Shown here piece after piece: positions 25,975 through 39,457 of a DNA stretch of 64,000 nt (the first letter of the stretch is position 1; the number at the start of each line of letters is the position of its first letter). Both the position numbers and the translations under genes were made by a program. The stretch is from the NCBI GenBank assembly GCA_963745025.1, contig CAVUWD010000006.1, positions 352,001-416,000 of the forward strand, read 5' to 3'. The notes beneath the pieces were generated by a model that did not search any database, was not told the origin of the DNA, and saw only the letters and a program-made list of their open reading frames with translations. The stretch is from an uncultured delta proteobacterium (GTDB lineage Bacteria > Desulfobacterota > Binatia > JACPRU01).

Positions 25975-26723
25975 GGTCGAGACGCAAGAAGCGCACGGCG
26001 CGAGCGCGGTTCGCCCGGGTGTTCACGCTGCTCGCCGCGTCGGTCGTCGGCGGACTCGTCGTCTGGGAGGCGCTCTTTCTTCGACTCGATGACCTGCGCG
26101 ACCCAAAGGAGGTGCGTGTTCTCAGCGTACCGGCGCCCCAGGGACCGAGGCAGCTCGTGGTAGGTCCGCAGAACCCGTATTGGACCCCGCTCGGTGCGAC
26201 CTCGCGCATGCTCGTCCTCTGTGTGGTGCGTTCCGAGGATGCCAAGTTCTTCCAGCACTCCGGATTCGACTGGGATCAGATGCAGGATTCTCTCGAAACC
26301 GATCTGGAGGAAGGGAAGTACAAGCGCGGCGGCAGCACGATCACCATGCAGCTGGCGCGCAATCTGTTCCTCTGGCGCGGCAAGTCGCTGCCCCGCAAGG
26401 CGCTCGAGGTGTACCTGACCTGGCGGCTCGAGCACACGCTGGCGAAGAAGCGCATCCTCGAGCTCTATCTGAACGCCGTCGAGTGGGGACCAGGGATCTA
26501 CGGCATCGGCGAGGCGAGCCGTCATTACTTCGGCAAGCCGCCAGCGGCGCTGACGCTCGGCGAATCGGCGATGCTGGCGGCGATCCTGCCGAACCCGCTC
26601 CGCTGGAACCCCGAGCGCGCGCCGCAGGCGGCGATGCGACGTCAGCAGGAGCTGCTCGCCCGCCTGCGGCGCGACAACGCCGTCGAGGACCTGCCCATGG
26701 CGGCGGAGCCGTTGCGGGAGTGA
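25971..26723 (+). CDS. mtgA: Monofunctional peptidoglycan transglycosylase
   Basis: SEDAKFFQHSGFD, RGGSTITMQLARNLF, RKALE, ELYLNAVEWG. Confidence 0.85.
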   Translation: MRSRRKKRTARARFARVFTLLAASVVGGLVVWEALFLRLDDLRDPKEVRVLSVPAPQGPRQLVVGPQNPYWTPLGATSRMLVLCVVRSEDAKFFQHSGFDWDQMQDSLETDLEEGKYKRGGSTITMQLARNLFLWRGKSLPRKALEVYLTWRLEHTLAKKRILELYLNAVEWGPGIYGIGEASRHYFGKPPAALTLGESAMLAAILPNPLRWNPERAPQAAMRRQQELLARLRRDNAVEDLPMAAEPLRE

Positions 26724-26730
26724 GCTCCGC

Positions 26731-29512
26731 TCACGAGCAGCCGCTCGTCGCGCCGCAGTTCCAGCATTTGTAGCAGGCGCCGTTGCGGATCATGATCGAT
26801 CCACAATCGGAGCATGTCGGTGCATCGGCCTGCGGGCTGAAGCCAAGGCTCGGCGGAATGGCCGGTGCGGGTTCCTTGTCCCGGACGGTGACGAGCCGAG
26901 GTGTGGCAGGCCACGGCCCGGCGTCGCTCGACGCGGAGGATTCCTGCCGCTCGATGATACCGATCTCTTTCTTGGCCTCGGGGTTCAGGAAACGCGAGCC
27001 GAGGAAGCGGAAGATGTAGTCGGTGAGCGACTTCGCCATCGGGATCTCCGGATTCTTGGTGAAGCCCGACGGCTCGAAACGGACGTGGCTGAACTTCGAG
27101 ACCAGCACCTCGAGCGGCACGCCGTACTGGAGCGCCATCGAGCGTCAGCGTGGCGATCGTGTCCATCAGGCCGGAGATCGTGCTGCCCTCCTTGGCCATC
27201 TTGATGAAGATCTCGCCCGGCGTGCCGTCCTCGAAGAAGCCGACGTGGATGTAGCCCTCGTGACCGGCGATGTCGAACTTGTGGCAGATCGCGGCACGAT
27301 CGGCCGGCAGTCGCCGGCGCGTCGGCCGGATTCGACCGTCGTCTCGGCGACCGCGGTCGCCGCCGCCGCGTCCGCCTTCTTGCCGGTGTTCAGCGGCTGG
27401 GTCCGCTTGCAGCCGTCGCGGTAGATCGCGACCGCCTTCAACCCGAGGCGCCACGCCTCGATGTACGCCTGTTCGATCTCCTCGACCGTCGCCTCGTTCG
27501 GCATGTTGACCGTCTTGGAGATCGCGCCGGAGATGAACGGCTGGACGGCGCCCATCATGCGCACGTGGCCGAGGGGGTGAATGGACGCGCGTGCCGCGCG
27601 CGGGCTTGAAGGCGCAGTCGAAGACGGCGAGGTGCTCGGGCTTGAGACGCGGCGCGCCTTCGATCGTCTCCTGCTCGTCGATGTACTCGACGATGTCCTG
27701 GATCTCGCTCGCGTCGTAGCCGAGCCGCCGCAGCGCCCGCGGCACGGTGTTGTTGACGATCTTCAGCACGCCGCCGCCGACGAGCTTCTTGTACTTGACG
27801 AGCGCGATGTCGGGCTCGACGCCCGTGGTGTCGCAGTCCATCATGAAGGCGATCGTGCCGGTCGGCGCGAGCACCGTGACCTGCGAGTTGCGGTACGCCG
27901 TCCTCGCGACCGAGCTCGAGCGTCTCGTCCCAGACGCTCGCGAATCGCGGAATAGAGCGGCAGCGGCACGAGCGAGGGATCGAGCCGGTGCGCATGGCTG
28001 CGATGCTTCTCGATCACGCTGAGCATGCGGCTCGCGGTTCTTCGCGTAGCCCGCGAACGGCCCCATGGCGCCGGCGATGCGTGCCGACTGCAGGTACGCT
28101 TCACCGCACATCAGCGCCGTGATCGCCGCCGCGTATTCGCGGCCCGGCTTCGGAATCGTAGGGCAGCCCCATCGCCATCAGCAGCGCGCCGAGGTTCGCG
28201 TAACCGAGCCCGAGCTCGCGATAGTCGCTGCGCGTTCTGCGCGATCTCCGTCGTCGGGTAGCTCGAGTTGTCGATGATGATGTCCTGCGCCGTGATCAGC
28301 ACGTCGACGGCGTGGCGGAACGAGTCGACGTCGAACTCGAGGTCCTCGTTCGACGAACTTCATCAGGTTGAGCGAGGCGAGGTTACAGGCCGAGTCGTCG
28401 AGGTGCATGTATTCGGAGCACGGATTCGACGCGTTGATCGCGGCCCGTTGCCGGGCAGGTGTGCCAGTCGTTGATCGTCGTGTCGAACTGCAAGCCCGGG
28501 GTCGCCGCAGAAGTGTGCCGCCATCGGAGATCTTGCGCATCAGCTCGCGGGCACGGAACGTCTCGCAGGGTTCCCCTGTGGTGACGTAGCGAGTCGTCCA
28601 GTCCTCGTCGTCGGCGACCGCCTTCATGAACTCGTCGGTCACGCGGACCGAGTTGTTGGCGTTCTGGAAGAAGACGGATGCGTACGCCGGTCCATCGAGG
28701 CTCGAGTCGTAGCCCGCATCGATCAACGCCCAGGCCTTCTTCTCTTCCTCCATCTTGCAGTCGATGAAATCCACGATGTCCGGGTGGTCGATGTTCAGCA
28801 CGACCATCTTCGCGGCACGCCGGGTCTTGCCGCCCGACTTGATCACTCCCGCCGACGCATCGGCTGCCCTCATGAAGGAGACCGGGCCGGAGGCCGTGCC
28901 GCCGCCGCCGAGCCGCTCCTTGGACGAGCGGATGCGGGAGAGGTTCACGCCCGAGCCGGAGCCTCCTTTGAAGATGACCCCCTCGCGGCGATACCAGTCG
29001 AGAATCGAGTCCATCGTGTCGTCGACGGAGAGGATGAAGCACGCCGAGCACTGCGGCTTCGGCTCGACGCCGACGTTGAACCACACGGGACTGTTGAAGG
29101 CCGCCATCTGGTGAAGCAGCAGATGCGTGAGCTCGTCGGCGAACGTCTCCGCCTCGCCGGGCGTGGCGAAGTAGCCCTGCATCTCACCCCACGCACGCAT
29201 CGTACGAACCACGCGCCCGATCAGTTGCCGGACGCTCGACTCGCGCTGTGGCGTGCCGATGGGGCCGCGGAAATACTTGGAGACGACGACGTTGGTCGCG
29301 AGCTGCGACCAGCTCTTGGGGATCTCGACTTCGTGCTGCTCGAAGACCACCTCTCCCTTTTCACCGCTGATGACCGCGCTGCGGTGCTCCCATTCGACGG
29401 TTGAGTAGGGGTCGACACCCGCCCGCGTGAACAAACGCCGAAGCTCAAACGCGCGCCGACGTGCTGGCCGCCCACCCGTCGCTCGCTCGCTACGCTGTGT
29501 CTGCTCTGCCAT
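26731..29512 (-). CDS. nrdJ: Adenosylcobalamin-dependent (class II) ribonucleotide reductase (frameshifted)
   Basis: [47 protein letters not shown]-terminal CSDC...CYKCWNCG. Confidence 0.92.
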
Positions 29513-29553
29513 GAAATCTCTCCAATTTGCCGTGGATCCCGCCGATGACCTCA

Positions 29554-29607
29554 CTCGCATATCTAGTAGGTGTCCGGATCATGTGCCACTACATCTTGTG
29601 CTGTCAA
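29554..29607 (-). promoter_or_regulatory. Two NrdR boxes plus -35 element upstream of nrdJ
   Basis: CCACTACATCTTGTGC (29586-29601) fits acaCwAtATaTwGtg; a weaker copy CTCGCATATCTAGTAG lies 32 bp away; minus-strand TTGACA at 29602-29607. Confidence 0.7.
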
Positions 29608-32105: not shown

Positions 32106-32540
32106 GTGTTCCGAACCCACATTTGCGAGATGCTCGGCACGGAATACCCGATCTGGCTGGCAGGAATGGGCGGCGTGTCCGTGGCGCCGCTCGTCGCCGC
32201 GATTTCCAACGCGGGAGAACTCGGTGTCATCGGTGCGGCCACACCCGGTCCCGAAGGCTTGCGGCGCGAGAGCCGCAAGACGCGAGAGCTGACCGACAAG
32301 CCGTTCGCCGTCGATCTTCTCGCCCCGATCCCCGACATGATCGGGCCGCACATGCGGGTTCATCAAGTGGCCTACTCCTCGCAGCAAGGTGTGACCGACT
32401 ACGTCGGCCGCGGCGGCGGTTGTGACCCGGCGGCGGAGATTTTCCGTACGATCGTCGTGGAGGCGGACGGCCTCGTCGAGGGAACCTTCCGAAATGACGA
32501 AAGCGACGGGCGACGTGGGCCGGCCGCGGCTCGGCCTTGA
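32106..32540 (+). pseudogene. Nitronate monooxygenase/FabK-family gene with a large internal deletion
   Basis: N-terminus ICEMLGTEYPIWLAGMGGVS...TDKPFAVDL joined after about 85 aa to a C-terminal-like PAAEIFRTIVVEA; the central barrel is missing. Confidence 0.6.
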
Positions 32541-33108: not shown

Positions 33109-34443
33109 CTAGCTAGGCCATTCCGCGATACGCTCGGCAGGAACACTTATTGTGAAGACGGAGCCCCCACCATCTCTAGGTTCGTACTTTAGCGTCCCTC
33201 CCCAGTTACGCACAAGGTTACTCGAAAGACCTAGCCCCGCGCCGAGGCCACCGCCGGGCCTCATTCCGACTTTCGGAGTGGACAGCTGAAACAATCGCTC
33301 ACGAGCCTCCGCCGATACCCCCTGGCCGTTATCTATGACAAAGACTTGCGCGCCGTCCCAACCTGGCACTTGGCTTGATCGTATCACTATCGCGCCCGTG
33401 CCGTTGTCCTCGACCGATTTTATGCTGTTCATTACAAGGTTTCTGAGCACATGATATGCATGTTCCCGCTTCACCCGCACGATCGGCCAACGGCCTTCAA
33501 TGGCTAGATTGACATTGCGTTCCTTGCATTCCGAGCTCAAATCCCGAGCGAGTTCACAGACCACATCCACCAATTTGTATGTAGGCGTCTCTTCGTTTTC
33601 CTGACCCAACTGGAACAAGCCCAGAGTGGCAACAGCAGATTCTACGCTGCGCAATCGGTCGTCGATCATGCCAATGAATCTCCCACAGCCAGTTAGATCC
33701 TTCTCTCGACAACTTCTAAGAGCTTCGCTGCACGCGCCGGAAATTGCCGCAAGCGGGCTATAGACATCATGCTGCACCAGGGCGGATAGCAACACCATAC
33801 CCTCTCTCGCCGTCTGCTCTTTGCTGTACGCAACCCCTAGTTCGCGCTTCTGCGTATACACTTCCAGTGTCTTTTCTCTCAGCTGCTCGGCTAGTGTCCC
33901 CGCTAAATATCCGAACACAAAAAACTGCAATATCGATCCAGCGAGCATTATCACCTTCCCCTCCGGCGTGAAATGCGCACCGAAAGCAACGTGCTGATGG
34001 GGTATTAACGCCATTTCCTCTGCCACGACCAGAATGGTGAGACAGAAAGCAGACCATGCTGCGAGTCGAAACGACGTCTTCATCGTGGAAAACGTAGCGG
34101 ACGTCACGATCATAATAATATACGCAACTATCGATATTGGAATATCCAAAGTGCCGAGACAATAGACGATTGCTGTCACGGCCAAAAGGTCGAAAGCCCA
34201 GTGAAAACGGAAATCATCCAGCGGATAACCTCTCTTCTTACCAATCCACCACAATAGAGGATTAACACAAATAAGCAGCGTCAACATTCCGTTTAGCCAC
34301 TGCAAGCCCGCTATTTGCTCACCTATTCCCCCTGCTTTTAGACTCACAAAGAGCGCAAGAAACACAGCCGCCGCCACGCCGCGGATCATCAACCCGCGCC
34401 TATAGATCGTGCGGCGATCTACAGACGACCACGTGACTTCCAT
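33109..34443 (-). CDS. Membrane sensor histidine kinase (multi-TM N-terminus, HisKA, HATPase)
   Basis: About 6 TM segments; H-box QHDVYSPL, N-box RNLVMNS, DNGQG, GLGAGLGLS. Confidence 0.85.
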   Translation of the reverse strand: MEVTWSSVDRRTIYRRGLMIRGVAAAVFLALFVSLKAGGIGEQIAGLQWLNGMLTLLICVNPLLWWIGKKRGYPLDDFRFHWAFDLLAVTAIVYCLGTLDIPISIVAYIIMIVTSATFSTMKTSFRLAAWSAFCLTILVVAEEMALIPHQHVAFGAHFTPEGKVIMLAGSILQFFVFGYLAGTLAEQLREKTLEVYTQKRELGVAYSKEQTAREGMVLLSALVQHDVYSPLAAISGACSEALRSCREKDLTGCGRFIGMIDDRLRSVESAVATLGLFQLGQENEETPTYKLVDVVCELARDLSSECKERNVNLAIEGRWPIVRVKREHAYHVLRNLVMNSIKSVEDNGTGAIVIRSSQVPGWDGAQVFVIDNGQGVSAEARERLFQLSTPKVGMRPGGGLGAGLGLSSNLVRNWGGTLKYEPRDGGGSVFTISVPAERIAEWPS

Positions 34444-34485
34444 TGGGAGCTCGTGATGCTACTTGTTTTCTCGGTAACGCGAAAG

Positions 34486-35910
34486 CTAAGAGCGGCTTGC
34501 CGAGCCTACTTCTCGATTCGCGGTTTTCGGCACGGAGAAGCAAAACCGACTACCCACTCTCGACTGTGACTCGACCCAGATTCGGCCGCCCCACCTTTCG
34601 ACGATCCGCTTCGACATTGCTAATCCCACACCCTCTCCTTCCTGCACGACGCCTGCCACTGTTTGGTCGGGGCCCCGATGATACAGCTGAAATACGCGCT
34701 CGCGTTGTCCACTGCTGATCCCTATGCCGTTATCTGTGACTGAAATGATCCACTCCGTGCCCAACTGATGCGAAGCGATCTGTATTTGCGGATGTGGTTT
34801 GTCGCCCACGTACTTAATGGCGTTATCGATCAAGTTGGTCAAGACGTGCTTAACTTGCGTCTCACTTGCCATTATTGTGGGCAGATCTGTGACCGTGATG
34901 CGCACTCCTTTCGATTCTAACCGCGCGCTCTCCGCTCGAAGGATCGCCTGGGTCACTTCTGCGACATCAATAAGCCGTTCAGCCGCCTCTTGATGATCGA
35001 CACGAAACAGGCGGAGAAGCTGGACCAACATTTCGTTCATTCGTCTCGTGTCGTCAAGTAAATGCTCAGCATATCGCCTAGCTCGATCTCTTACCCCGCC
35101 CCCCTCGATCGCCAATAGACGTCGTGCAGTTTCGGTGGCACCGACTGAGACATTCTTTAGGTCATGGGTTACAATGTGGACAAACCCCTCGATTTCTGTG
35201 TTGCGTCTTTCCAGTTCACGAGTTCTCTCCGCAACTTTGGCTTCGAGAAACTTGTTCTGCGCCTCAATCTGATTTCGCGCACGACCTAGATCCGCGTTCG
35301 CGTACTTCAGTTGGTCCGCCAATGTCCCAGCAAGGTATGCGAAGATGTAGTAGAAGGCGACGGCAAATATCAGGGAAGCGATCCGCATCCCGTCTGTCAT
35401 GTCCATACCCCAGACGTGAGGAGGGTTTATCAGTTCGTAAAGCTGTGCGACTGAAAACACTATAGTCGTCACTGTTGCTGCGGAGGCGACCACAAACGAC
35501 GATCGCTTCGAAAGGAAGGTGGCAGACGTAACGACGATCATCACATACGCCAGGAAGCCGTAAGGGACATCGATTCCTCCGAGCAGATACAAAACCCCCG
35601 AAATCAAAATCAAATCTATCAACCAGTGAATGTAGAACTGGCGTAAAGGGAAAGCGGCTCTTACGGCGGCATACCAGTACAGTCCGTTCACAGCAACGAG
35701 ACAGCCGAGAATACTGAAAAGAGCTGAGAGTTGAAGCTCTGGGAGGTATGTAAGTTCGGCAATGCAAAAGAACACAAACGCGAATGCCCCGCTAACTCTC
35801 GAGCGAAATTGTAGACCGTCGGCAAATTTGTGACGCCGCTCGGGAAGCGGCTCATCAGGACACGGAAGAACGATGTTTAGGTATTCCGAAAACACCATCT
35901 TGCGCGTCAC
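34486..35910 (-). CDS. Membrane sensor histidine kinase (PilS/RegB-like TM domain)
   Basis: DLILISGVLYLLGGIDVPYGF TM motif; coiled coil KVAERTRELE; THDLKN, NLIDNAIKY, DNGIGI, GEGVGLA. Confidence 0.88.
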   Translation of the reverse strand: MTRKMVFSEYLNIVLPCPDEPLPERRHKFADGLQFRSRVSGAFAFVFFCIAELTYLPELQLSALFSILGCLVAVNGLYWYAAVRAAFPLRQFYIHWLIDLILISGVLYLLGGIDVPYGFLAYVMIVVTSATFLSKRSSFVVASAATVTTIVFSVAQLYELINPPHVWGMDMTDGMRIASLIFAVAFYYIFAYLAGTLADQLKYANADLGRARNQIEAQNKFLEAKVAERTRELERRNTEIEGFVHIVTHDLKNVSVGATETARRLLAIEGGGVRDRARRYAEHLLDDTRRMNEMLVQLLRLFRVDHQEAAERLIDVAEVTQAILRAESARLESKGVRITVTDLPTIMASETQVKHVLTNLIDNAIKYVGDKPHPQIQIASHQLGTEWIISVTDNGIGISSGQRERVFQLYHRGPDQTVAGVVQEGEGVGLAMSKRIVERWGGRIWVESQSRVGSRFCFSVPKTANREVGSASRS

Positions 35911-35911
35911 A

Positions 35912-36634
35912 TCAGGAAGGCCAGCGGTTGTTAAGAACCTCTCGCCCGTGTTGCCGCACACCCTGAAGCGCCTCGCTTATGATCCTCACATGGTCGACTG
36001 TTCTTAGGTTCGATGGCGCATGGAATCGGATAGCTTCGCCAAACGTGCTGAGAACACGGCTCCTGGGCAATGGAAGAGCGACCGCGACCCTAAAGTTAGT
36101 CATCCGAACCGCCGGCACTGCTAGTACGGCGAAAGGCACAACAGCAGCGCCAATTGACTTGGCGAGGCTTACGAGACCCGGGGGAACAGTGAAGTAGGGA
36201 CCGTGGCCATCTACAGCCACGAAGGCACTGCACCTTTCCTGTACAACCGTTCGTAGCGACCGAAGGCGAGCCGCTGCGTCCTGAACACTCACGGGCAGAA
36301 TCCTGGCTCCGAGCTCCGTGACTGCAGATTGCATGACAACGCCGCCGAATGAGTCGTCGGCAACGAAGGCAAACTGCTGCGCCAATCTGCGAAGGAAGGA
36401 TGAGGCAAATCCTATGGAAAGCAGCGCCACATGATCCGAAATCCAAAGGGCATAAATTACGGGACCATCTTGCCGTTGCTTCTCGAAAAATTCCGAAATA
36501 CAGGGGTCGTCTCCACCGCAAACAGCCCCGTCAGGGAATGAGAATGCAACCCTCAGTGAGCGCCCAATCAATCTAAGGTATCCACATAAAACCACCGAAG
36601 CGATCCTGGCAGAAACCGTAGCGAGAGATCCCAC
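35912..36634 (-). CDS. Divergent DUF374-like lysophospholipid-acyltransferase-fold protein
   Basis: GPVIYALW, AVDGHGP, PGLVSLAKSIGAAVVP and LPLPRSRV...FGEAI follow the DUF374 pattern; the usual WH reads WI. Confidence 0.65.
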   Translation of the reverse strand: MGSLATVSARIASVVLCGYLRLIGRSLRVAFSFPDGAVCGGDDPCISEFFEKQRQDGPVIYALWISDHVALLSIGFASSFLRRLAQQFAFVADDSFGGVVMQSAVTELGARILPVSVQDAAARLRSLRTVVQERCSAFVAVDGHGPYFTVPPGLVSLAKSIGAAVVPFAVLAVPAVRMTNFRVAVALPLPRSRVLSTFGEAIRFHAPSNLRTVDHVRIISEALQGVRQHGREVLNNRWPS

Positions 36635-36646
36635 GTCCAGGCAGGT

Positions 36647-36883
36647 CTAGTCAGAAAGGCGATCAAAAAGGCGCTCTAAATCTTGTACCGTCACCAGCGT
36701 AACGACGTCCTCCTCTTTGATTACAATGTCCAACTCCTTCTCTGCGGCAAAAATCAGATTCAATGCGATAATCGAGTCCATTCCGAGGTCTTCGCGAAGC
36801 CGCTGGCTTGGCAACAACGCACTCAAGTCGACGTTGAGCTCCCTGGACAGAATCAGTCTAGCTCGATCAACCAGCTCACGCAC
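36647..36883 (-). CDS. Acyl carrier protein
   Basis: 78 aa, acidic, EDLGMDSI phosphopantetheine site, TVQDL; start overlaps the ketosynthase stop. Confidence 0.9.
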   Translation of the reverse strand: MRELVDRARLILSRELNVDLSALLPSQRLREDLGMDSIIALNLIFAAEKELDIVIKEEDVVTLVTVQDLERLFDRLSD

Positions 36884-38201
36884 AGCTACCGACGTCCCTT
36901 ATCACCAAGGCAGCGTTCCGAGATCCGAACCCGAAGGTAGGCGATAGCGCGGTGCGAATCTTGGCCTTTCGCGCCTCATTCGGTACGAAATCGAAACCCT
37001 GGCGCAAATCTTCCGGAGCTAGGTTGATCGTAGGAGGCAGCGTGGACGATTCGATCGCTCGCGCGCAGGCAATCAGCTCCAGAGCACCCGCAGCTCCCAT
37101 GGAATGTCCGATCATAGACTTGATTGAGCTCAGTGGAATTTGGGGAACCCGCTCCCCAAAGACGTGCCGCATGATATCGAGTTCGATCGGGTCGTTTCCC
37201 TTCGACCCGACCGCATGAGCGTTAACGTAATCGACTTTGTCAGGGGTCACGTTAGCCTGCTCTAGTGCCAAATAGATCGCCCGCACGCCTTCATCGCCCG
37301 TTGGCAGCGGGGAGAAGCCATGAAAGGCATCGGACGTCGCAGAGTACCCAGAAATCTCAGCTAGCGGTTCCGCACCGCGCTCGGCGGCAGCGTCTTCAGC
37401 TTCCAGAATACACGCTCCGGCTCCTTCGCTCATGACGAAGCCGTCGCGAGCAGCTGCGAACGGGCGAGAGGCGCGCTCAGGACCGTCGTTCTGACGCGAC
37501 ATAACTCCTAGGCGGTCAAATGCCGAAAATAAGAAGGGCTCAAGTGGTGCCTCTGCGCCACCCACGATCGCGCGGTCGATCAAGCCCGCACGGATATGCA
37601 ACAACGCCAGGCCGATAGCGTCAGTGGCCGAGGTACACGCGGTGGAAACGCAGATCGCCGGACCGCGAATATCGAATTGAATCGCTATCTGCGTAGCAAC
37701 GACGCCGGCGTACGACTGAGCTGGGAACAAGGGATGAATCCGGCGTATCCCCTTCTCGAGAAACACCGCATGATTCTCGGCTGCATAAGAGAACGTACCC
37801 ACCGACGTGCCGAAGAAGACCCCGATCCTCCTGGAGTCGGTCCCTTGAATGGAAAGGCGAGCATCCTCGAGAGCCATTCGTGCGGCAGCAACACCTAGCT
37901 GCATGCACCGAGCACTTCCGGATATGGCCTTCTGCGACATGAAGTCAGCGGGACGGAAATCTGGGATCTGGCCCGCCACGCGGGTCCCGTAAGGGGTAGG
38001 ATCAAAGGCAGTGAGCGGTCCAATGCCTGGCCTTCCAGCGACGAGATTCTCCCAAAAGCAGTCGAGGCCCGTTCCGTAGACGGTCACGCATCCCATCCCC
38101 GTGACCACCACGCGCCGATCACGGCCCCCCTGGGCAACGGCGACAGATTTGTGCGCCCCCTCCCCCCCATGACGATCGCTCCTGGTTGTAATTGACATCA
38201 C
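36876..38201 (-). CDS. Beta-ketoacyl-ACP synthase (FabF / type II PKS KS-like); start uncertain
   Basis: RRVVVTGMG, STACTSATDAIG (Cys), YVNAH, KSMIGHSMGAAG (His-His), ASRPF, FGFG. Confidence 0.9.
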   Translation of the reverse strand: MMSITTRSDRHGGEGAHKSVAVAQGGRDRRVVVTGMGCVTVYGTGLDCFWENLVAGRPGIGPLTAFDPTPYGTRVAGQIPDFRPADFMSQKAISGSARCMQLGVAAARMALEDARLSIQGTDSRRIGVFFGTSVGTFSYAAENHAVFLEKGIRRIHPLFPAQSYAGVVATQIAIQFDIRGPAICVSTACTSATDAIGLALLHIRAGLIDRAIVGGAEAPLEPFLFSAFDRLGVMSRQNDGPERASRPFAAARDGFVMSEGAGACILEAEDAAAERGAEPLAEISGYSATSDAFHGFSPLPTGDEGVRAIYLALEQANVTPDKVDYVNAHAVGSKGNDPIELDIMRHVFGERVPQIPLSSIKSMIGHSMGAAGALELIACARAIESSTLPPTINLAPEDLRQGFDFVPNEARKAKIRTALSPTFGFGSRNAALVIRDVGSCA

Positions 38202-38338
38202 GTTGCGCGATTATTTTCTGGTGTCGCGCCGAACTCTTACGCTTTAATTTCGCCCTTCTGGGGGTTGCAAGTCAAGAGAAGCTCGTGTCGCGAGGCGCGA
38301 CAGGGTTTTAAAAGGTTTCCCTAAGAGGAGGCAGACAA

Positions 38339-39457
38339 CTGAGGGTCCTCGTTGTTGAAGACAACCGTCGCCACGCTGAGCTGATTTCGGACGAGCTCCA
38401 TGACAGCGCCATGGCGACGCATGTGGATTGGGCGGAGACAGGGGCCGATGCCCTAGAAATCCTGGCGGCTCAGCCAATCGACCTAATCGTTCTCGACTAC
38501 CGCCTTCCCGACACCGACGGGATCGAGTTCATGAAGGCGCTGCGTTCTCGCGGAATTAACACGCCGATCATCTTCGTGACTACCGCCGACTCGGTCCAGC
38601 TGGCCGTCGAGGCCATGAAGCTCGGCGCCGAAGACTTCGTGCAGAAGCAGGAAGGATACCTCGCGGTGCTTCCCCTACTCGTCCGCGAGGCTCTCGAGCG
38701 GCAACGCCTTCGGAACGAGAAAACTCGCCTCGAGGCCGAGCTCCGCCAGGCCGATCGTCTCGCCTCGCTCGGCATTCTCGCTGCAGGGCTCGCGCACAAC
38801 ATCAACAACCGCCTGACCTCGCTCAAAACCTTCTTCGATCTCATTCCCCAGCGTTACGACGATCCCTACTTCCGCGACGAGTTCCTCAAGACCTGCCAGA
38901 TGGACCTGGATAAGATCGCTCTCCTCGTTCGCGAGTTGACGCGCTACGCCTTCACGGAAGACTCACCCCGGCCGCTGCAGCCGCTGACGGACCTCATCAT
39001 GCGGGCGATCGGCCACCTCGACGACGAGATCCACAAGAAGCAACTCCGCATCCGCACCGAGTTTGCCGAGGTACCGCTGCTTCCTCTCGATCCCGAGGGA
39101 GTCAAGCAGCTGTTCATCAACCTGCTGAAGAACGCGATTCAGGCGAGCCCGGTCGGCGGTGAGATTCTCGTCAGCCTGGCTCTCGAAACCCACGCCGAGC
39201 CGCAGATCGTCGCTCGCGTGCGAGACCACGGGCCGGGACTGCCGGCCCAGATGCGCGAACGCATCTTCGATCCGTTCTTCACGACCAAGGATCACGGCCT
39301 CGGAATCGGGCTCTACCTCTGTCACAAGATCGCCAGCTTGCACCGGGGCCGGGTCGAGGCGGGGAACCCGATAGGCGAAGGGGCCGAGTTCGCGGTCTAC
39401 CTACCGGTCGCACCGAGCGAAGAAGGCGCTGCGCCTTCGTCCGAAATGATGAGCTGA
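38339..39457 (+). CDS. Hybrid response regulator receiver - histidine kinase
   Basis: REC (LRVLVVEDN, LDYRLPD, FVT, DFVQK) plus HisKA AHNINN plus HATPase (NLLKNAIQA, DHGPG, PFFTTK, GLGIGL); in-frame extension to CTG at 38339 behind GAGGAGG. Confidence 0.88.
   Translation: MRVLVVEDNRRHAELISDELHDSAMATHVDWAETGADALEILAAQPIDLIVLDYRLPDTDGIEFMKALRSRGINTPIIFVTTADSVQLAVEAMKLGAEDFVQKQEGYLAVLPLLVREALERQRLRNEKTRLEAELRQADRLASLGILAAGLAHNINNRLTSLKTFFDLIPQRYDDPYFRDEFLKTCQMDLDKIALLVRELTRYAFTEDSPRPLQPLTDLIMRAIGHLDDEIHKKQLRIRTEFAEVPLLPLDPEGVKQLFINLLKNAIQASPVGGEILVSLALETHAEPQIVARVRDHGPGLPAQMRERIFDPFFTTKDHGLGIGLYLCHKIASLHRGRVEAGNPIGEGAEFAVYLPVAPSEEGAAPSSEMMS

Follow-up and report, generated by a model that had tools for sequence, protein, structure and literature searches.

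The 64,000-nucleotide stretch of an uncultured delta proteobacterium genome analyzed here (contig CAVUWD010000006.1, positions 352,001 to 416,000; referred to as the window) contains a cassette in which a FabF-like ketosynthase (KS), a dedicated acyl carrier protein (ACP), an acyltransferase-like (AT-like) protein and sensor kinases with six transmembrane helices (6TM) are encoded together with a REC-histidine kinase hybrid. Comparison with related genomes revealed that this gene order is a conserved unit, in which the ACP, the AT-like protein and the membrane sensor domain of the kinase are exchanged as a block onto a resident kinase core. Judging from the sequences, we lean with slightly better than even confidence towards a self-contained, type-specific acyl-signal and receptor system that would resemble those of quorum sensing or kin recognition. 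This reading is favoured since social signals are expected to occur in exchangeable forms among close kin, a pattern that is difficult to account for in a housekeeping sensor. The features of the cassette, in window coordinates, are:

36876..38201, minus strand: FabF-like KS, assigned by Pfam/NCBIfam and the closest solved sequence, active site intact
36647..36883, minus strand: dedicated ACP (PF00550), GMDS motif with the phosphopantetheine Ser
35912..36634, minus strand: AT-like protein with LPLAT fold, DUF374/LpxJ-related, without the catalytic His (structure model and hhalign)
34486..35898, minus strand: HK1 sensor kinase with six-helix PilS-like membrane domain, coiled coil, DHp (HDLKN) and HATPase
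35305..35844, minus strand: HK1 membrane sensor domain, the 3' end of the swappable block
33109..34443, minus strand: HK2 sensor kinase, a paralogue of HK1
38339..39457, plus strand: soluble REC-histidine kinase hybrid, divergent, probable CTG start
38202..38338: intergenic stretch separating the starts of the divergent KS and REC-kinase genes, presumably with their promoters
33109..38201: low-GC block, GC 0.549

All six ORFs are open at these coordinates. KS and ACP overlap by 8 nt, and the following junctions measure 12 nt (ACP to AT-like), 13 nt (AT-like to HK1) and 42 nt (HK1 to HK2), in agreement with an earlier annotation made from the DNA letters (the sequence-only reading), which had described intact ORFs and tightly packed minus-strand genes with gaps of 42 nt or less and overlapping KS and ACP. 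Pfam and NCBIfam recognized a FabF-like KS, a PP-binding ACP, HATPase kinases and a REC plus HATPase protein, while the AT-like ORF had zero matches in either. The HK1 start is probably ATG 35898, and a promoter and terminator scan that included 38202..38338 yielded no consensus site above chance.

The AT-like protein was matched in 26 of 61 relatives, and a 17-sequence AT-like profile, with seven candidates scored per genome, gave matches in 163 of 401 genomes of the class. Strong matches (E<=2e-23) were obtained in 35 genomes, comprising the window's own genome plus 4 of 7 in family f1, 12 of 20 in f6 and 18 of 19 in f10, the remaining matches being at 1.6e-17 or weaker. Every one of the 35, including 14 loci that had served to build the models, was located inside a cassette; KS, ACP, AT-like protein and kinase were complete in 33 and cut by contig ends in two, and the REC-kinase was present at 34. 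Among 25 fetched control loci with weaker DUF374 matches, none carried the KS, the ACP or the sensor domain. The co-occurrence of biosynthetic genes and kinases on which the sequence-only reading depended is therefore a conserved trait (35/35 versus 0/25). A deep AT alignment proved too variable for scanning metagenomes, and an independent scan relied on a KS motif instead. Of its 74 matches, 58 had cassette genes and 16 had none; in 57 of these 58 loci the KS was followed by the ACP (broken off in one) and in the remaining one by a kinase. Seven of the metagenome loci duplicate genome loci.

About 120 AT-like clusters at 50% identity score strongly, 104 of them at E<=1e-30. Optional parts include the second kinase (f1-type loci), a second intact KS (7/67) and extra REC-kinases. 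The genes flanking the cassette vary by host family and were rejected as part of the core. Outside the class, 89 of 300 genomes of the phylum had sensor-like matches, and the 12 loci followed up, being the strongest matches plus those of kinase-like length, had no KS, ACP or AT nearby. Plasmids and PDB sequences contained no AT-like match. No paper on this gene set was found among titles and abstract beginnings, a search that left subscription journals mostly uncovered. In six close pairs all parts were under purifying selection (dN/dS 0.06-0.33). The AT-like protein evolves fastest, with values of 0.25-0.33 that still indicate purifying selection, while the sensor domain, at 0.09-0.15 in five of the six pairs and 0.32 in one, is not simply fast-evolving.

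Gene trees revealed two histories within the cassette. In those of KS, kinase core and REC-kinase the three host families come apart, whereas those of AT, ACP and sensor domain have a different topology in common. Over 50 loci, the AT and sensor trees had 15 supported splits in common and no conflicts, and 11 of 28 KS splits conflicted with AT. When 53 AT-sensor pairs were clustered at thresholds of 40% and 50%, five main groups with nearly the same membership for both proteins were obtained; at 35% the AT groups merge. Among the 26 genomes with all parts, G090 and G138 are sisters in the kinase core (100/99), a grouping that was rejected in the sensor domain (p-AU 1.6e-51), AT (4.7e-10) and ACP (0.002). 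Similarly, the grouping of G154 with G130 was rejected in the sensor domain (7.8e-6), AT (1.6e-32) and ACP (0.0002), that of G100 with G156 in the sensor domain (p 0.0098), and the sensor-defined type B in KS (p 1.5e-54).

Closer examination of individual pairs showed the same pattern along the genes. The same-genus genomes G130 and G154 are 91% identical in the REC-kinase and 82% in the kinase core, compared with 41% in the sensor domain, 28% in AT and 45% in ACP. In G100 and G156, also of one genus, the core is 87%, the sensor domain 38% and AT 33% identical, and the KS (53%) travels with the variable block; in G066 and G122 the KS (91%) stays out of the block, with ACP, AT and sensor domain at 36%, 27% and 34%. 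In four same-genus pairs, kinase identity rises abruptly around codon 200, going from 32-50% to 82-97% in G130/G154 and G100/G156, and it is flat in three control pairs. The GC content at third codon positions steps up at about the same kinase point in G020, G100, G154 and G156; the window copy shows no internal GC step because its low GC spans both kinases entirely. ACP, AT-like protein and sensor domain are thus exchanged together onto a resident kinase core, and specificity tracks these three parts more than the KS. AT, ACP and sensor domain co-vary in the manner expected of a pair that makes and senses a signal, while the KS usually follows the host. An apparent AT-sensor fusion in G004 is not trusted because the locus has several frameshifts; longer fused AT-like forms were not found among 8000 candidates, which is weak evidence.

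The structure model of the AT-like protein (pLDDT 95.7) matched GPAT, PatA, PlsC and LpxM, the last of which has thioesterase activity. Against GPAT (1IUQ) the model gave Z 12.9 and rmsd 4.6 over 216 aligned residues, and hhalign against the genome's own DUF374 gave a probability of 97%. The family stays below the PF04028 gathering score, with 2 of 17 members matching (best E 0.035). The window copy is not among the two hits to this model in its genome, which has two other DUF374 genes. Characteristic motifs are Wxx(D/H), DD(S/T)xGG and DGxGPY; one Asp is invariant, and a second Asp, an Arg and a Tyr are nearly so. Rickettsia LpxJ is reported to require W60, H61, D86, D132, W172 and D173 (PMC6148475). 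With residue positions mapped by the primer-table motifs of that paper, the AT-like protein keeps the equivalents of W60 and D132 and is without H61, D86, W172 and D173, four of the six essential residues. The catalytic His after the conserved Trp was found in 0 of 109 and 0 of 53 AT-like sequences and in all five housekeeping DUF374 rows, and position Trp+3 is occupied by Asp in 79 and by His in 22 of the 109. An LpxJ orthologue was rejected accordingly: the LPLAT fold and DUF374 homology are there, and the catalytic His is absent (0/109). With these residues lost, ordinary O-acyl transfer cannot be assumed, and the protein either works by another chemistry or is a pseudo-enzyme. Its top Atlas feature match was a cluster of 78 "hypothetical" proteins, most commonly from Gemmatimonadota. 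A complex prediction of sensor domain and AT-like protein scored 0.00 and was counted neither way.

The closest solved sequence to the KS is B. subtilis FabF (4LS5, E 1.4e-92), and its Cys-His-His-Lys residues are invariant in 67 of 67 family members. The gate loop reads GFGS-R-N and the acyl pocket is remodelled. Compared with the genome's FabF, the changes are G107S/A/T, I138Y/H, G198L and T403R, in approximate E. coli numbering estimated from the distance to the Cys. Residues at G107, I138 and G198 are bulkier in 67/67, T403R is invariant (partly by construction for motif-selected rows), and position 108 is mostly V or I. Housekeeping FabF was rejected as an identity: with 432.5 bits the KS falls below the TIGR03150 cut-off of 493.75, passing the broader NF005589 (424.6 versus 387), it forms its own clade, and a separate FabF adjoins FabH in the genome. 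Pocket blocks are reported to shorten the products of FabF I108F (PMC9006962; bioRxiv 10.64898/2026.02.26.708327) and of a yeast enzyme with G1250S (PMC5353594), which together with the bulkier pocket points to a short product of the cassette KS. The core contains no type II polyketide synthase chain-length factor. A second intact KS lies between AT-like gene and kinase at seven loci (L019, L050, L088, L094, L101, L119 and L144); their triad is complete, they group in a separate clade close to the f1 KS, and they may add variety to the product. In the ACP, which belongs to the variable block, D-S and E are conserved in 78/78 and N in 77/78. Conserved residues predict an intact KS, with the acyltransferase-fold protein as the non-canonical enzyme of the cassette.

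HK1, the conserved core kinase of the cassette, scored 32 bits against 6TM_PilS (PF25323, cut-off 27), and 49 of 53 family members match this model at E<=0.01. HK2 is 30% identical to HK1, has the same membrane domain and was seen only in f1-type loci. All of 62 sensor domains have the same R, H, D and G. Of these residues, R, D and G are common to PilS-like domains in general, while the His is nearly specific to the family and occurs in one, possibly two, of 13 outgroup rows. The sensor model has six helices (pLDDT 90.4) and matched ImcA (Z 13.4, rmsd 3.8, 182 aligned) and the cyclase 6TM anchors of AC5 (12.2), AC9 (12.1) and Rv1625c (9.9), with unrelated rows at 8.8 or less. CqsS was not among the listed matches, and Foldseek returned no significant match. 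The CqsS receptor can reportedly replace the 6TM cyclase anchor of Rv1625c (PMC4821796), unsaturated C18 acids are described as regulating Rv1625c through its membrane domain (PMC12505454), and mammalian cyclase anchors have been reported as lipid receptors (PMC11606603). PilR or pilus genes were absent from 40 flanking proteins scanned, including recurrent neighbours, while the other 6TM_PilS protein of the genome adjoins pilC. At L152:25-2100 (contig C13 of the window's genome, G000), next to a pilC-like gene, a PilS-like 6TM domain is fused, in a protein that has no kinase, to an apparent sigma-54 activator recognized by eye from AAA+ and HTH.

The REC-kinase gene is divergent in the window, whereas in families f6 and f10 it follows the other genes in the same direction; its Asp (68/68) and His (68/68) sites are invariant. 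Its start is most likely CTG 38339 behind GGAGG, as predicted from the reading frame. This codon is preferred because ATG 38411 would truncate the REC N-terminus, and no ATG, GTG or TTG lies between the upstream in-frame stop and that N-terminus. The GGAGG then CTG arrangement (window 38326-38341) recurs in G001, G006 and L096.

In the signal system that we favour, the KS, supplied by housekeeping fatty-acid synthesis, would use the dedicated ACP to condense malonyl-ACP with an acyl starter that is short or polar, and the chain would be left as an unreduced 3-oxoacyl group because the cassette is without a reductase. The His-less LPLAT-fold protein would take the chain off the ACP in a non-canonical manner, either releasing it or passing it to an activated acceptor such as an amine, and would set the identity of the signal, since it co-varies with the receptor while the KS often does not. 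The product would partition into or across membranes and bind a polar pocket (R/H/D/W/Y) in the 6TM domain, upon which HK1 would phosphorylate the REC of the hybrid kinase for relay to an unlinked response regulator. A more far-reaching version, which we put forward tentatively and hold to be possible more than probable, is a new class of cell-cell signals with "dialects". In this version a FabF-type KS and a private ACP feed a His-less LPLAT-fold synthase with novel acyl-transfer chemistry, to whose completion the invariant His-x3-Asp in the membrane domain of the receptor may contribute, and the PilS-like 6TM domain reads the product, which would make the family lipid receptors like cyclase anchors and CqsS. 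At least five exchangeable types of natural ligand and receptor pairs would then exist.

Several points weigh against a type-specific signal. The cassette is without an exporter gene, and given its lost essential residues the AT-like protein may be no enzyme. The window KS belongs to a group of 7, out of 67, with V/I and S in place of the two threonines that bind pantetheine; loss of either threonine impairs other KSs according to a review (PMC9006962), so the altered residues may lower its activity. The sensor Z scores of 10-13 are, for a helical bundle, near the caution level of the tool. In the tree tests, the grouping of G100 with G156 was not rejected in AT (p 0.25), nor type B in the kinase core (p 0.09), nor f10 monophyly in the sensor domain (p 0.16); the p-values are optimistic because the groups were picked after the first trees. 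The genomes compared are kin, and seven metagenome loci repeat genome loci. Finally, PilS, a characterised member of the Pfam family to which the sensor belongs, is reported to sense a protein, pilin (PMC6058289), which keeps protein-sensing explanations alive.

Such an explanation, the main alternative although we consider it unlikely, is an intracellular acyl-ACP sensor. The KS would load the ACP according to malonyl or acyl supply, a His-less LPLAT pseudo-enzyme adaptor would hold the acyl-ACP at the membrane and present it to, or acylate, the 6TM kinase, and co-variation would reflect co-adapted interfaces between proteins and no diffusible signal. The lack of the catalytic His in 109/109 and the variable ACP would be explained as well as by a signal, the ACP lying in the variable block while the KS can stay 91% identical; a core with no tailoring or export gene and the sensing of a protein inside the membrane by PilS (PMC6058289) also agree with it. 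It is hard to see, however, why a housekeeping metabolic sensor should exist in several exchangeable and deeply diverged forms in a single genus, and the invariant Asp together with the near-invariant Asp, Arg and Tyr of the AT-like protein fits a retained active site. We regard as improbable that the cassette tags envelope lipids. In the manner of the rhizobial AcpXL/FabFXL/LpxXL cluster, KS and ACP would build a special acyl chain that the LpxJ-derived protein places on lipid A or a phospholipid; the lipid so modified would be sensed by the kinase, either in its own membrane or in one that touches it. Descent of the AT-like protein from DUF374/LpxJ with the LPLAT fold, the dedicated KS and ACP pair, and an MMPL-family gene close to the cassette in 23 loci, mostly f10, would suit such tagging, but the LpxJ-essential His, Asp86, Trp172 and Asp173 are absent, a reductase or dehydratase for a long saturated chain is missing, the KS pocket residues are bulkier than those of FabF, and the MMPL gene runs opposite to the cassette in those f10 loci that were checked, with its closest relative in the window's genome (49%) unlinked.

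Chance juxtaposition on a recently acquired low-GC island deserves next to no credence. Its low GC is the only feature in favour, as opposed to the order conserved in 35 of 35 strong-match genomes, the same neighbourhood across f1, purifying selection and host-like GC in many copies. A recent island was ruled out by the conserved order in the strong-match genomes and in the loci of the KS-motif scan. The make-and-sense proposal of the sequence-only reading is partly supported in that the unit is conserved and its parts co-vary, but it has to be amended in that the KS is less tied to specificity and the AT-like protein is without LpxJ residues.

If the signal reading is correct, a signal chemistry made by FabF, ACP and LPLAT-fold proteins would be read by a membrane kinase in an uncultured lineage; PilS-like 6TM domains would have small-molecule ligands, with a link to the lipid-receptor role of adenylyl-cyclase anchors. 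The naturally swapped types would provide a ready cognate/non-cognate matrix, making the claim testable by heterologous expression without culturing the host. Should the acyl-ACP alternative be true, the cassette would represent a pseudo-enzyme-mediated acyl-ACP sensor, likewise undescribed.

The arrangement most closely recalls agr of Staphylococcus and comQXP of Bacillus, in which, as described, the genes for synthesis make up a hypervariable block together with the sensor half of a membrane kinase, so that the boundary falls inside the kinase gene (3' agrB, agrD and 5' agrC, PMC3673130; comQXP polymorphism, PMC4408185) and several types coexist among close kin. In contrast to these, the cassette has fatty-acid-type enzymes and no peptide precursor or processing enzyme; the tightly packed window genes leave no room for a precursor gene, the core being KS-ACP-AT. 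Its output is a REC-kinase and no DNA-binding regulator, and its signalling is predicted from genes. The alpha-hydroxyketone systems CqsA/CqsS and LqsA/LqsS likewise use a 6TM histidine kinase, their ligand being lipophilic, and the CqsS domain reportedly can stand in for the Rv1625c anchor (PMC4821796), to which the cassette model is similar, but the synthase would be KS, ACP and LPLAT-fold protein and the sensor scores as 6TM_PilS. CqsA, unlike this synthase, is a pyridoxal phosphate (PLP) enzyme. A stand-alone ketosynthase is also found in the photopyrone (PpyS/PluR) and dialkylresorcinol (DarABC/PauR) systems, where it is reported to make a cell-cell signal (PMC7154725); PpyS is FabH-like with LuxR solos as receptors, whereas the cassette KS is FabF-like and its candidate receptor a membrane kinase. 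With LpxJ/DUF374 late acyltransferases of lipid A the AT-like protein shares homology, fold and the W60 and D132 equivalents, but it is without H61, D86, W172 and D173, scores below the Pfam cut-off and is encoded in a signalling cassette, with separate DUF374 genes in the genome. HK1 has the six-helix domain and conserved R, D, G, P and Y of PilS (PF25323), but no PAS domain, PilR partner or nearby pilus genes, and His replaces the usual Gln. FabF/KAS II enzymes are the closest solved relatives of the KS, with Cys-His-His-Lys kept, and differ in pocket, clade and TIGR03150 score.

The GC of the block compares with a genome mean of 0.659 and is among the lowest 0.1% of 5-kb windows; the hand counts of the sequence-only reading (29, 27 and 42 of 60) were exact. 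Its view of a foreign block was upheld for the low GC and not for recent foreignness, since the window is colinear with the same-genus genome G001 (about 83% nucleotide identity over block and flanks) and the cassette sits in the mrp/priA neighbourhood in G001, G004, G005 and G006 of family f1, a site that related genera have in common, with host-like GC in many copies. This colinearity and the kept neighbourhood argue against a recent island; the block is a resident, recombining cassette. Elsewhere in the genome, 5-kb GC drops below 0.56 only at G000:C15:30000-38000, where it goes down to 0.52. Of the decayed flanks described earlier, the nitronate-monooxygenase-like gene (window 32106-32540) is a true case, with an in-frame loss of 168 codons compared with G001 and an adjoining G001 stretch also absent, but other flanking breaks may be sequencing errors. 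A ribonucleotide-reductase-like frame (by eye) at 26642-29560 is split into several frames, with many gaps relative to G001, possibly long-read sequencing errors.

Individual loci deviate from the general layout. At L149:2970-5725 a 2.7-kb insertion-sequence-like stretch takes the place of the AT-like gene, L055:8363-9748 is an unexplained 1.4-kb gap ahead of the kinase, and at L097:954-2195 a cytochrome P450-like gene (by eye), with relatives near five loci, lies between two REC-kinases. The MMPL-family gene found near the cassette (for example L024:14109-16541) is convergent in f10, and its closest G000 relative lies beside a glycerol-3-phosphate dehydrogenase gene. A separate cluster of ACP, KS pair, LolA-like and MMPL genes at L176:4425-11211 (contig C19 of G000) resembles aryl-polyene or similar lipid clusters.

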